DNA of 64,000 nt from Scenedesmus sp. PABB004 (GCA_014905635.1 JABVCE010000018.1:620001-684000), one strand, 5' to 3'. Counted from the first letter of the stretch, positions 7,511 through 25,183 are shown. Notes: generated by a model from the sequence alone, not told the origin. A program made the numbers and translations.

Positions 7511-7917
7511 TGTGGTGAGTTGTTGCACGCGGTGCGCACCAAATTATAATAATGCGTGCGCACGCATGTCAGTGATTTTTCTTCTTCTTCCGCTTGCGTG
7601 CGTTTGATGTTGATTTTCTGGAGCCGCGCTGCCAGCGGGCTCCGAGCGCCCCAAGAACCATGAGCAGCTACACCAGCCAGCCGGCATGTGAAAACCAATG
7701 CCCGCACGCACGCAGCACCCCCGCGACGGGCAGGGCGTTCTCCAGGTAGTGCGGCATGCCGTGGCAGTCGGGCGTCGCTTGCGGGAGCGTCCCAGCGGCA
7801 AGCAGGCCGCCTCAGCGCGGTCACGCTAAGGCCCGTGCCAGCTCCTCACCTGATCAACTGATCAACTGAGTCATGACCCTACCCCGCGCCAGCACCAGCG
7901 ACTAGCGAGCGACACGT

Positions 7918-10183
7918 CTAGGCCGCCTCCGCTTTCCCCGCCCCCTGATCGCCCCGCCCCGCCTCCTTGTCGGCCACCGCTGCAGCCTCGTCTGCCGCCG
8001 CGTCCGGCCCGGCGCGCCAGCGCGCCGCGATCTGGGCGCCCGCGCCCGCCGCGAGCAGCGCGTTGGCGCCGGCGAGGATCGAAAAAAACGGCCCCGGGCC
8101 TAGCGCGGCGACGGCGGCCGAGGCGGCGAGGATGAGCACGCCGCACCCGAAGTACGAGGTGCTGTACATGCCCGCCGCCGCGGCGGCGGCCTGGCTCTGC
8201 TTGAGGGCTGTCAAGAAGCTGAAGATGGCAGGCTGATAGAACGAGTTGGCCGTGCCGATCAGCACCTGGCCACCGAGCACGGCGGCGAGGTGGAGCCGGC
8301 CCGACGCGGCCCAGCCAAAGAGGAGCAGCCCCGCCGGCATGAGCAGCCCCGCCACGCCCGCTCCGGGCGCGAGCGCCGCGAGCGGCACGCCCGGGCGCGC
8401 TGCCGCGGCCGCGTCGCTGAGCCGGCCGCCGAGCGGGCTCGCGAGCAGGCCGGCGAGGCCGCCGGCAGTGTAGGTGAGGCCGACGTAGGTGGGGGAGAGC
8501 GAGTATGGCGGCGCCGCGAGGACGACGGGCAGCTCGGTCAGGATGGCAAACATGCTTGAGAAGACGAGCAGCGACTGGCCCGCATGCAGCACGACGCGGT
8601 GGTCCGCGAGGATGCGCAGCGGGTGCCACGGCGCCTGCGAGGGGATGCCATGCGCGGGGCGTGGGCGCGGGCGCGGGCGCAGGCGCGGGCGCGGGCGTGG
8701 GCGCGGGCGCGGGCGCGGGCGCGGGCGCGGGCGCGGGCGCGGGCGCGGGCGCGGGCGCGGGCGCGGGCGTGGGCCCGGCAGGGCGCAGGTGGTGCGGGTG
8801 AGGCGGCGCGGCGCGGCGCGGCGCGACGCGTTGTCGTTTGGCGCGTGCACGCGCACCTTGAACTCCGGTGGCGTGCTGAGCACCTTGGCTGCCTCCGCCA
8901 GCCCCGCCGCGGCGCCGGGGTCGACGCGTGACAGCGCGGCGATGCGGTGATAGTGGTGCGTCTCAGGGAGCACAAAGACCAGCAGCGGTGACACGACGAC
9001 CAGCGCAAGCGCGCCGACGGCGGCCATGGTGGAGCGCCAGCCAAACGCCTGCGCTAGTGCCCCGCCTATGATGGGGCCCACGAGACGGCCTGCCGGCGGC
9101 GGGATGGGAGGGGGGGCGGGGGGGGGGGGGGGATGAGAAAAAGCGGGCCACGCCCCCACGAGCAGCCCCGGCCACCACCCGGGGCCGCGGTGGCGGCGGC
9201 GGCGCGGCGCGCTGCGGCGCGTGGGCCGCCACGCCGTGCCGCACCCACGAGCATTGGGATGACCAAAATGCCGAGCGCCGTGCCGCGCTCCAGGGGCGCG
9301 TAGATGTCGGCCACAATGGCGCTCACGGTTGCGCCGTACGCGGACACTGCGCGGGGGCGCGCGCGTAGGCGGGGGGGGGGGGGGGGGGGCACGGTGGGCT
9401 GGGCGACGGAGGCACCGCGCGCGCGTGCGCCGCCGGCGCCGCGCCCGCCGCACGCCCCGTGCGTGCACCACGTGCGCGGTCACCTGACGCGCCCTGCAGC
9501 GCGCGGAAGGCAATGAGGGCACCGATGGAGGGTGACAGGGCGCAGGCGAGGCTGGTCAAAATGAAGGCGGCGGTGCTGGCAAGGAAGACCGGCTTGCGCC
9601 CGAAGCGGTCCGACGCGGGCCCCCAGACGAGGCCCGCACAGCCGACCTGCAGCGTGGGGGACAGGCGGCGGGCAGGCGTCAGCCGGCGTGCGGCCGCACA
9701 GCGCGGCGCACAGCGCGGCGGCGCGCACAGCGAAGACATAGATCGCAACCGTCGCTGCGACTTTTTCCTGCGTCGTCGCAAACTCTGCCTGCAGGGGGCC
9801 CAGGGCTGGCAAGTAGATTGTGTCCGATACCGGCATGAGCACGCTGGCGATGCAGGCGGTCGCCAGAATCACACCGCGCCGGCGGCGGCTGTGGAGGTTG
9901 TAGATGCTCGTCACGCTCTTTGCGCCGCCCTCGGACGGCGCCGACGCCACGGCGCTGCGGGCGTCGTCGCCCTTGAGCGCGCACCCCCACACCACGTGCA
10001 CTCCGTGCTGCGGCTCGGGGGCGGCCGGCGCCCCTGTCTCCGGCGTGGTGCTGCGGCGGCGCCGCGGCAGGGCGGCACGGCGGGTCAGGAGGGTCGGCAA
10101 GCCCGCACGCGCAGGCTCAGCGGCTGGCGGCGGGCGCAGCCTGGCCGGCGGCGTGCCGCGCTGCAACGGCCGTCACACCCCAT
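7918..10183 (-). CDS. MFS transporter, DHA1-like drug:H+ antiporter family, copy A1 (5' exon uncertain)
   Basis: Spliced exons give SDTIYLPAL, WGPASDRFGRKPV (motif A), LIAFRALQG, IVADIY..ERGTALG, GxxxGPIIGG (motif C), FGWR, LPET, GGRLSD. ATG at 10183 inferred from the homologous position in copy B. Confidence 0.85.
8657..8774. repeat. (GGGCGC)n hexamer array in the last intron of MFS A1
   Basis: About 19 units; the copy in A2 is 48 bp (8 units) longer. Confidence 0.9.
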
Positions 10184-10549
10184 CGTGGCTGACGCAACGC
10201 CGCTCTCCGCAGGCTCCATGAGCGCGACGAGTGGTTGATCTCGAGTGGAAGCAGCGGGGTGCGCTCCGCGAGTCAGGGAGAGCCGCCGCGAGCGGATCGC
10301 CTTGCGCCTCCCGCTGGCTGCAGCCGACGTGCGCGTCCGCCGGCCGCCGCGACAGGATGATGAAAGATACAAGCGCAACCACTGAGTGGCTTGGCTGCGT
10401 CCGGACGCTCGAGTAAGGCCCTAGGCCCGCTTTTGACAAGCACCTGATCGCAAAACTGATGTGACCCCTGATCGGGCTCTGTTTGGCTGTGTAACGGAGC
10501 CGCACGCTGCACTCACGCTCAACAGCAGGCAGCAGCGCTCTGCATCGGC

Positions 10550-22439: not shown

Positions 22440-22617
22440 CGGCACGCCGTGGCAGTCGGGCGCCGCTTGCGGGAGCGTCCCAGCGGCAAGCAGGCCGCCT
22501 CAGCGCGGTCACGCTAAGGCCCGTGCCATTTCCTCACCTGATCAACTGATCAACTGAGTCACGACCGCGGGGTGGACCCTACCCCGCGGCTGCGCCAGCG
22601 ACTAGCGAGCAACGAAC

Positions 22618-25183
22618 CTAAGCCACCTCCGCTTTCCCCGCCCCCTGATCGCCCCGCCCCGCCTCCTTGTCGGCCACCGCTGCAGCCTCGTCTGCCGCCG
22701 CGTCCGGCCCGGCGCGCCAGCGCGCCGCGATCTGGGCGCCCGCGCCCGCCGCGAGCAGCGCGTTGGCGCCGGCGAGGATCGAAAAAAACGGCCCCGGGCC
22801 TAGCGCGGCGACGGCGGCCGAGGCGGCGAGGATGAGCACGCCCGAGCCGAAGAACATGCACGAGTGCATGCCCGCCGCCGCGGCGGCGGCCTCGCGCTGC
22901 TTGAGGGCGGTGAGGAAGCTGAAGATTGCCGGGAGGTAGAGCGAGGCGGCCGCGTTGATGAGCACCTGGCCGCCGAGCACGGCGGCGAGGTGGAGCCGGC
23001 CCGACGCGGCCCAGCCAAAGAGGAGCAGCCCCGCCGGCATGAGAACCCCCGCCGCGCCCGCCGCGGGCGCGAGCGCCGCGAGCGGCACGCCCGGGCGAGC
23101 GGCCGCGGCCGCGTCGCTGAGCCGGCCGCCCAGCGGGCTCGCGAGCAGGCCGGCGAGGCCGCCGGCAAGGTAAGTAAGGCCCACCGCGCTGGGGCCGAGC
23201 GAATAAGGCGGCGCCGCGAGGACGACGGGCAGCTCGGTGATGCTGGCAAACATGCTGGAGAAGACGAGCAGCGCCTGGCCCGCGTGCAGCGCGACGCGGC
23301 GGTCCGCGAGGATGCGCAGCGGGTGCCACGGCGCCTGCGAGCGGGAGGGGGGGGGGCAGGGGGGCGTGAGTGCGGGTGCCTCGGCGCGCCGCGCTGTGCG
23401 CGCACACACACACACACACACACACACACACACACACACACACACACACACACACACACACACACACACACACACACACACACACACACACACACACACA
23501 CACACACACACACACACACACACACACACACACACACACACACACACACACACACACACACACACACACACACACACACACACACACACACACACACACA
23601 CACACACACACACACACACACACACACACACACACACACACACACACACACACACACACACACACACACACACACACACACACACACACACACACACACA
23701 CACACACACACACACACACACACACACACACACACACACACACACACACACACACACACACACACACACACACACACACACACACACACACACACACACA
23801 CACACACACACACACACACACACACACACACACACACACACACACACACACACACACACACACACACACACACACACACACACACACACACCTTGAACAC
23901 CGGCGGCGTGCTGAGCACCTCTGCCGCCTCCGCCAGCCCCGCCTCGGCGCCCGGGTCGGCGCGTGACAGCGCGGCTATGCGGTGATAGTGGTGGGTCTCT
24001 GGGAGCACAAAGACCAGCAGCGGCGCGATGACGGCGAGCGCAAACGCGCCGACGGCGGCCAGCGTGGCCCGCCAGCCAAACGCCTGGGCTAGGGCCCCGC
24101 CCACGATCGGGCCGAGAATGGGGCCTGCCGGTGGTGGGTGGAGGAGGGGGGCGCGTGGGTCGGCGGGGGCGGGCCGCGCTCGCGAGCGGGGCCGGGCGGC
24201 GTCTGCGCCGCGGCAGCGCGCCGGGGCGCGTGGGGTGCCGTGCCGCACCGACGAGCATTGGGATGGTGGAGATTCCCAGCGCCGCGCCGCGGTCCAGGGG
24301 GGCGTAGGTGTCGGCGATGATGGCGCTCGCGGTCGCGCCGTAGGCGGCGACTGCGCGGGGCGGACAGGGCAGGGCGCGGCGCGCTGGTCAGCAGAGCCGC
24401 GCGCGCCGCGCGCACCGCACGCCCCGACTGGGCGCGCCGCGCGTCACCTGACGCGCCCTGCAGCGCGCGAAAGGCGATGAGGGCACCAATGGAGGGCGCG
24501 AGCACGCAGGCGAGGCTGGTCAGCACAAAGGCCGCGGTGCTGGCGAGGAAGATCGGCTTGCGCCCGTAGCGGTCCGACGCGGGGCCCCAGACGAGGCTCG
24601 CGCAGCCGACCTGCAGCGCGGGGGGCAGGCGGCGGGCGGCGGGCGTCAGCCGGCGTGCGGCGCACGGGCCGCACCGCGCAGCGCGGCGCACAGCGCGGCG
24701 GCGCGCACGGCGAAGACGTAGACGGCGACCGTCGCGGCCACCATCGGCTGCGTCGTCGCAAATTCTGCCTGGAGCGGCTCCAGGGCAGGCAAGTAGATGG
24801 TATCGCAGGTCGGCATGAGCACGCTGGCGACGCTGACGATGGCGAGAATGGCGCCGCGCCGGCGGCGGCTGTGGAGGCTGTAGATGCTCTTCGCGCCGCC
24901 CTCGGACGGCGCCGACGCCGCAGCGCTGCGGGTGGCGTCGTCCTTGGGCGCGCGCACCCACACCACGTGTGCTGCGTGCTGCGGCTCGGGGGCGGCGGGC
25001 GCCGCTGTCTCCTGCGTGGCGCTGCGGCGGCGCCGCGCGCGGCCGCGGGGGCGGCGCGGCGTCAGGAGGGTCAATCAGAGTCAGGAGGGTCAGCCACTCC
25101 GCACGCGCAGGCTCAGCGGCTGGCGGCGGGCGCAGCCCGGGGCCGGCGGCGGCGGCCGCGCTGCGGCGGGCGTCGCACGTCAT
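22618..25183 (-). CDS. MFS transporter, DHA1-like, diverged paralogue B (5' exon uncertain)
   Basis: Same intron positions as the A copies. CDTIYLPAL, WGPASDRYGRKPI, GPILGPIVGG, FGWR, LPET, GGRLSD. Confidence 0.88.
23403..23891. repeat. (CA)~244 perfect microsatellite in the last intron of MFS B
   Basis: Uninterrupted dinucleotide run of ~489 bp. Confidence 0.95.

Follow-up and report, generated by a model that had tools for sequence, protein, structure and literature searches.

The 64,000-nucleotide stretch of Scenedesmus sp. PABB004 analysed here (GCA_014905635.1, JABVCE010000018.1:620001-684000; below, the window, with positions counted from its first letter) contains a tandem array of three major facilitator superfamily (MFS) transporter genes, MFS-1, MFS-2 and MFS-3, with spacers of gene fragments between them. 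We consider it likely, at a probability of about 0.72, that the locus is a birth-and-death MFS array in which unequal crossover, or an equivalent homology-driven template switch, made the chimeric middle gene MFS-2 and carried the spacer along passively.

Self-comparison of the window with blastn showed that 7712-12869 matches 16430-21649 at 98.0% identity and 12834-17373 matches 18805-23344 at 98.4%, in head-to-tail order with a start-to-start period of 5970/5971 bp. An extra sub-copy was found at a spacing of 2804 bp (10031-12869 against 12834-15679, 99.2%). Chance would give nothing near such similarity. Both spacings agree with an earlier reading of this DNA (the sequence-only reading), which had described a ~5.97-kb head-to-tail unit plus a 2.8-kb sub-copy. 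The interval given there, 7712-22840, holds only the near-identical part of the array. Two weaker self-matches, 7712-8644 against 22400-23344 (90.6%) and, in continuation, 8848-10286 against 23883-25285 (only 77%), show that the left part of the unit recurs once more, in diverged form, after the near-identical block, and the array thus reaches 25345 through a diverged third MFS gene. From left to right it reads A1 (7712-8644), (GCGCGG)21, B1 (8848-10350), C, C' (the extra 2.8 kb), D, A2, (GCGCGG)29, B2, C2, D2, A3, (CA)244.5 and B3 (to 25345), followed by HemK. Its parts are as follows.

7712-10350, minus strand: unit U1, MFS-1 with its flanks; coding blocks at 7921-9887, right end of the homology at 10350/25345
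10031-12834: segment C, copy 1 of the tandem sub-duplication of 2,804 bp, reaching from upstream of MFS-1 into the spacer
12835-15638: segment C', second copy of the 2,804-bp sub-duplication
16430-19124, minus strand: unit U2, chimeric MFS-2; coding blocks at 16650-18661
16655-16871: putative crossover interval in U2, equivalent to 7926-8142 in U1 and about 22626-22842 in U3
19124-22400: second spacer copy, without the 2.8-kb sub-duplication, with the same fragments of beta-ketoacyl-ACP synthase II (KASII), of a GYF-domain gene and of the region upstream of acyl-CoA oxidase (ACOX)
22400-25345, minus strand: unit U3, MFS-3; coding blocks at 22621-24867, all five in frame

The chimerism of MFS-2 is directly visible in a three-way alignment of the units, in which we took as informative the substitution sites where U1 and U3 differ. 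Across 7712-7925, U2 agrees with U3 at 17 of 17 informative sites. It agrees with U1 at 57 of the 59 sites in 8143-8644 and at all 248 in 8848-10350, that is, at 305 of 307 to the right of the tract in which the switch occurs. With gap columns included, the counts are 34/0 against 2/71 (Fisher p ~7e-26, the columns being not fully independent). The switch falls in 7926-8142, a 217-bp tract that is identical between U1 and U3 and belongs to the last ~220 bp of the coding region. U2 hence has the 3' end of MFS-2 and its downstream flank from gene 3 and the remainder from gene 1. Directly past the switch lies a U3-type patch of two sites (8193 and 8196). Inside the crossover tract, five substitutions private to U2 are packed within 16 bp (16824-16839) and keep the frame, changing LGPGPFF to LDAGPFF; the cluster may have come by conversion from a paralog not seen here, or by mutation during repair of the crossover.

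The array thus presents paralogs in direct orientation, a single switch within a tract of identity, a period equal to the spacing of the parental genes and a near-identical duplicated interval, as unequal crossover would leave them. Since the 5.97-kb period corresponds to the spacing of two MFS paralogs already present, and since the gene between them is their hybrid, the amplification is best explained by homologous unequal crossover. The sequence-only reading had instead proposed a gene-shuffling hotspot, arising by template-switch repair or Pack-element/Helitron-like capture, that is amplified as a cassette; these two observations do not support that view. The parental-chimeric-parental layout is the signature of this textbook mechanism. 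MFS-1 and MFS-3 are identical in the tract, yet their synonymous divergence (dS) is 0.18-0.45 elsewhere, a pattern indicative of gene conversion at an earlier time. Away from the crossover zone and the C/C' junction, the two periods differ by ~6 substitutions in ~5.8 kb, in coding and non-coding sequence alike (~0.1%), and further by 48 bp of microsatellite length and small indels of 2, 1 and 1 nt. With so few substitutions, the amplification event is recent.

In the course of events that we propose, the old paralogs MFS-1 and MFS-3 would have lain ~6 kb apart in direct orientation, with a spacer of dead gene fragments between them, and gene conversion would already have rendered the last ~220 bp of their coding regions identical. 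Unequal crossover within this identical tract would have given the body of gene 1 the 3' end of gene 3, yielding the hybrid MFS-2, and would have duplicated everything between both crossover points, which would give the 5,970-bp period. In a separate event, a 2,804-bp piece of the first spacer would have been tandemly duplicated at ~40 bp of imperfect homology. The spacer fragments themselves would be older DNA-level copies, KASII from outside the window and a 1.6-kb GYF/ACOX-upstream segment from 27 kb away.

Parts A and B of the unit make up one MFS transporter gene on the minus strand, whose exon-bearing open reading frame (ORF) scores 56.1 bits against Pfam MFS_1 (cutoff 33.4). Five in-frame coding blocks were found and the start codon was not located; with that proviso, the full MFS gene claimed by the sequence-only reading holds. 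The Pfam score supports membership in the MFS superfamily. On single blocks the closest NCBIfam subfamily is Bcr/CflA, with 55.5 bits on a 54-amino-acid block, far under the whole-protein cutoff of 200.9, and a DHA1/Bcr-CflA-like subfamily is only a lead. A homolog search with the large MFS exon region gave 2 matches, too few for a comparison of synteny, the best named one from Chromochloris zofingiensis (47% over 35% of the query).

The three genes were further compared at the codon level. MFS-1 and MFS-3 align over 381 codons in the five blocks with no stops or frame breaks (dS 0.30, nonsynonymous divergence (dN) 0.10, dN/dS 0.34), and their final 74 codons differ at only 2 sites; this comparison indicates real, older paralogs with a converted 3' end. 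MFS-2 is intact, with blocks 1-4 100% and block 5 97.9% identical to MFS-1 and no gaps (tblastn). Two microsatellites, identified with Tandem Repeats Finder (TRF), interrupt the parental genes.

8652-8778: (GCGCGG)21 microsatellite of MFS-1, within putative intron 4
23403-23891: perfect (CA)244.5 microsatellite, 489 bp with 100% matches in TRF, in putative intron 4 of MFS-3

The microsatellite of MFS-2 has 29 GCGCGG units (17381-17555). Putative intron 4 of MFS-1 spans 8635-8856 (AAG/GTGCGC...TCGCAG/GCG), and the reading frame of MFS-3 shifts across the (CA)n array, as expected of spliced-out sequence. These splice-type borders and the frame change suggest that the microsatellites are intronic, so that MFS-1, MFS-2 and MFS-3 may all be intact genes. 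The (CA)244.5 array occupies in MFS-3 the position held by (GCGCGG)21 in MFS-1 and (GCGCGG)29 in MFS-2, and at the spot homologous to (CA)n MFS-1 has merely a short GTGCGCGTGCACGCG motif. An uninterrupted dinucleotide run as long as (CA)244.5 is unusual and points to very recent expansion or to assembly difficulty.

The extra copy of segment C has a junction of its own, which we resolved by a five-way alignment of the segment edges.

12835-12875: mosaic junction of the 2,804-bp duplication, composed of two parental edges

At this junction the B-to-C edge and the C-to-D edge are mixed within ~40 bp of imperfect homology, and the repeat as a whole spans 2 x 2804 + 41 bp. Outside the junction C and C' differ by one substitution, the remaining differences clustering at the junction itself. 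The 2.8-kb sub-copy is best described as a separate tandem duplication of microhomology type.

The spacer is composed of fragments of other genes, and their parents were sought in the window.

~10959-11234, plus strand: 5' fragment of KASII (FabF-type beta-ketoacyl-ACP synthase II), with an intron between two exon pieces; copies at +2804 and +8774
11389-11985, plus strand: GYF-gene fragment (amino acids 276-476), inverted relative to its parent 50729-50127, 89.7% (blastn)
12348-12595: ACOX-upstream fragment, a copy of 49114-49359, 90.4% (blastn)
15783-16468, minus strand: GYF-gene 3' fragment (amino acids 475-697), in the same orientation as its parent 49418-50132, 88.2% (blastn)
49114-50729, minus strand: parental segment from which the GYF and ACOX-upstream fragments come, partly inside the GYF gene and partly downstream of it

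The KASII fragment corresponds to FabF/KASII residues ~13-60 (PDB phmmer E 5.7e-6); against NCBIfam fabF it gives E 1.9e-8, below the cutoff, as expected of a fragment. Its translation runs 'RRVMVTGM...GHE', is interrupted by a 114-bp GT-AG intron (11010-11123; GAG/GTGCGG...CCCAG/GTC) and resumes with 'VEPFYDALLAGKSG...FAGEIK'. No KASII parent was found by blastn within the window, and both the identity of this 5' piece and the placement of its parent outside the window thus agree with the sequence-only reading. That reading had also held that capture occurred at the DNA level, which the retained intron supports.

The GYF fragments derive from the parent at 49.4-50.7 kb, as had been supposed, with dS 0.15-0.18 and dN/dS 0.54-0.65 against it. 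The first (11389-11985) is pseudogenic, with an in-frame stop, a local frame slip, 83% amino acid identity (tblastn) and a Pfam GYF match at E 1e-4, below the cutoff. The 3' fragment (15783-16468) keeps its frame at 82% amino acid identity (tblastn), has dS 0.18 and dN/dS 0.54, and abuts the MFS 3' flank. A further piece had been assigned to the 5' region of the ACOX gene ('ACX'). It is indeed a copy of 49114-49359, a stretch past the GYF stop and short of any recognisable ACOX exon; its reading as ACOX coding sequence found no support, there being no Pfam match for it among 15 minus-strand ORFs and no PDB match.

In the spacer, the GYF gene is cut at residues 475/476. The copies of 49114-49359 and 49418-50132 stand in direct order and that of 50127-50729 is inverted, on the other side. 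The GYF and 'ACX' pieces are together best accounted for as one 1.6-kb parental segment with one inversion, its breakpoint at ~50130. Within the GYF gene, 49868-50073 is self-complementary (~70% inverted self-match) and lies ~55 bp from this breakpoint. A HemK 3' end had also been counted among the fragments. We rejected it, since the homology between the unit and the HemK-adjacent region stops at 10350/25345, ~280 bp beyond the HemK stop codon (~25623). The four source genes proposed earlier accordingly reduce to two source loci, KASII and one GYF/ACOX-upstream segment. About 1.3 kb of the spacer is without identifiable source within the window; 10350-10960, 11985-12348, 12595-12834 and 15639-15783 gave only GC-rich low-complexity matches there.

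The relative ages of the two processes can be read from the divergences. The fragments are 10-12% from their parents, with the dS given above, against ~0.1% between the periods, which places capture before amplification and bears out the sequence-only reading both on this order and on its contrast of near-identical unit copies with diverged fragments. Each copy of spacer piece C also drew an ARAGORN call of tRNA-Arg(GCG), on the minus strand and of 87 nt (12239-12325, 15043-15129 and 21013-21099), and a fourth such call, of 64 nt on the minus strand, fell at 40355-40418. Rfam gave no tRNA match over 6000-26500 at the gathering threshold, nor over 11950-12450 at E up to 1. The calls, left without Rfam support, probably arise falsely from GC-rich DNA, unless they mark a degenerate tRNA-like relic.

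The surroundings of the array point to a longer history at this locus. Left of U1 lies what appears to be a fourth MFS gene in decay.

7286-7534, minus strand: decayed MFS remnant, internally deleted, of which the C-terminal tail and the last part of coding block 4 survive

The remnant is matched by blastn (7082-7340 against 7789-8059, 70%; 7431-7510 against 8852-8931, 85%) and by tblastn at the peptide level (7534-7445 and 7321-7286). The GYF fragment next to A2 and A3 recurs at the left edge of U1 as a stub of 39 bp. Between MFS-1 and MFS-3, the uncorrected synonymous divergence falls from ~0.3-0.45 per site in the 5' blocks to ~0.16 (~0.18 corrected) in block 5a. The remnant, the stub and the fall in divergence together suggest that the locus had already gone through several rounds of duplication, of deletion and of gene conversion biased to the 3' end.

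A spacer that is a mosaic of unrelated gene fragments with a retained intron, one fragment originating outside the window, has features typical of capturing transposons, and it might be a non-autonomous element of Pack-MULE-like or Helitron-like type that landed between the MFS genes. We hold this to be highly improbable. Pfam detected no transposase or Rep/helicase domain among 70 ORFs of at least 60 amino acids from the spacer and the parent region, as the sequence-only reading had stated. The Helitron test covered Rep/helicase domains in spacer ORFs, no element ends being definable. At the edges of the spacer, the unit and the array there are no terminal inverted repeats above chance, the best match being 12 nt and being equalled in 2 of 60 shuffles for the spacer, 22 of 60 for the unit and 7 of 60 for the array; the inverted repeats listed are GC-rich and 70-91% complementary. 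By blastn, no further spacer copy exists elsewhere in the window, and the GYF stub ties that fragment to the MFS flank and not to an element end. Distinctly less remote, and still quite unlikely in our judgement, is replication-based amplification, by template switching of the FoSTeS/MMBIR type (fork stalling and template switching/microhomology-mediated break-induced replication) or by rolling-circle-like re-copying, which would have built and multiplied the cassette while stitching the fragments together. It would suit the microhomology-type mosaic junction of the 2.8-kb sub-duplication, the templates only 27 kb away and the two GYF pieces in opposite orientations with ~6 bp of parental overlap (50127-50132), although such an overlap at BLAST ends can be chance. 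Break-induced replication re-invading a paralog would, moreover, yield the same hybrid gene as crossover. The main junction, however, uses 217 bp of perfect homology and not microhomology, and the gap between fragment divergence and period divergence makes stitching and amplification separate events.

An assembly artefact is unlikely as well. The real locus would then be MFS-1, one spacer and MFS-3, with a false middle copy created by an assembler loop or by haplotypes placed in tandem. Several points weigh against unequal crossover here. The copy number is that of the assembly. The differences between the periods (the 2.8-kb sub-copy, 21 versus 29 microsatellite units, a few single-nucleotide changes) are of a kind that could be allelic, and two haplotypes misjoined through an identical tract would give the same picture. 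The join falls exactly where genes 1 and 3 are identical, the private cluster of U2 in that tract could reflect either conversion or a faulty consensus where sequence was falsely joined, and the perfect 489-bp (CA)n array beside it marks a region that is hard to assemble. Nor does simple crossover explain the 39-bp GYF stub or the 5'-to-3' fall in synonymous divergence, and additional conversion or rearrangement steps must be assumed for both. On the other side, 217 bp of identity is far shorter than typical long reads, which makes a loop unlikely; the in-frame private substitutions of U2 and its U3-type patch resemble recombination products rather than consensus errors of the indel type; and the 2.8-kb junction is a novel, unique mosaic, which argues against an assembly product.

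Independent sequence bears on part of the spacer. Public runs sharing words with the region comprise three freshwater metagenomes, with 5-10% of the sampled words, and no RNA run is listed. A 517-nt contig from an independent freshwater metagenome aligns end to end on 11862-12377 (11 differences, 3 gaps, ~97%) and runs across 11985, where the inverted GYF piece ends on its right, so that this portion of the mosaic spacer, at the least, is also present in independent data. Two 151-nt freshwater-metagenome contigs are identical to 11756-11906 and 14787-14937. Freshwater samples thus contain the organism, or a close relative of it, at low abundance. Contigs placed on 8900-17300 are short and of low depth, with many GC-rich look-alikes at 90-95%, and are uninformative on copy number and on the C/C' and D/A junctions. 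When JGI metagenome contigs were scanned under guidance of the MFS block 5 protein, none of the 573 pattern matches was confirmed, and the exact 32-base pattern of the GYF/MFS junction gave no match.

A comparable layout has been described in Candida parapsilosis, where CDR1B.1 and CDR1B.2 belong to a tandem chimeric efflux-pump array of parental-chimeric-parental form (PMC10760152). The genes there encode ABC transporters, the copy number rises up to ~16x in connection with drug exposure, and the array was confirmed by long reads (PMC10760152). The likeness would lie in adjacent, similar transporter paralogs that recombined out of register, in hybrids bounded by both parents and in a raised copy number of an efflux transporter. 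The Scenedesmus array differs from the one so described in that it involves an MFS gene, has one hybrid copy, includes a 3.3-kb spacer of pseudogene fragments and is known from assembly sequence alone.

The anti-Lepore haemoglobin and the red/green opsin arrays are classical products of unequal crossing-over between tandem paralogs. They share with the present locus a hybrid flanked by both parents, a period set by the spacing of the paralogs and a switch in a tract of high identity. The organism and the gene family are different, and here the identical tract was seemingly made by earlier gene conversion of the 3' end.

Two further systems resemble the spacer. Pack-MULE and Helitron capture in plants gives DNA-level mosaics of unrelated gene fragments with introns retained, and the spacer is likewise a fragment mosaic copied at the DNA level with an intron; unlike those elements, it has no terminal inverted repeats, element ends, dispersed copies in the window, transposase or Rep, and one of its sources is 27 kb away. 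Templated 'filler' insertions and FoSTeS/MMBIR produce complex rearrangements from nearby templates, yeast SUL1 reportedly being an example of this type. The short nearby pieces in mixed orientation and the microhomology-type 2.8-kb junction are similar, whereas the 5.97-kb amplification took place on long perfect homology, and an age gap separates fragment capture from amplification.

If the proposed history is right, the locus displays the growth of a tandem family step by step, from old paralogs through a conversion tract and a crossover hybrid to a separate microhomology duplication, and a striking gene-fragment mosaic can be the passive passenger of ordinary recombination instead of a capturing element. 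For annotation, the region would be described as three intact MFS genes plus pseudogene fragments. Selection for transporter dosage, which the sequence-only reading had raised, is plausible by analogy; should copy number vary between strains, the array would be a possible marker for transporter-dosage adaptation in a GC-rich alga. A bolder version, in which the array is a live, copy-number-polymorphic amplicon in natural freshwater populations, transporter-dosage selection having driven successive duplications (remnant, old paralogs, hybrid copy, 2.8-kb sub-copy), and its plus strand is transcribed across the KASII 5' region and the inverted GYF piece into a new chimeric gene with a plastid-targeting leader, strikes us as improbable.

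Every 2-kb bin of the window has 71-82% G+C, and the sequence is eukaryotic, its source reading as plastid-bearing, very GC-rich and probably chlorophyte. Gene families around the array were assigned from matches of ORF pieces, as follows.

2.9-6.4 kb: plastid-type DXP reductoisomerase
25626-27002, minus strand: HemK/PrmC
40-41 kb: PNO1
41.4-43.2 kb: FAE1-type ketoacyl-CoA synthase
45.5-47.3 kb and upstream, minus strand: ACOX
49431-51554 (ORF), minus strand: GYF-domain protein, Pfam GYF 28.7 bits against a cutoff of 25.7
~53.9-61.6 kb, minus strand: clathrin heavy chain
~63 kb: Rad51-like piece

Trinucleotide repeat arrays with a 9-bp periodicity occur at 26259-26478, 51796-51943 and 60900-61131; the first lies within the HemK ORF span and reads as long poly-Q or poly-A, depending on the frame. 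Inside the span of the DXP reductoisomerase gene pieces, 5099-5221 is an imperfect (TG)n-like tract whose opposite strand matches the (CA)n array at 79% identity.

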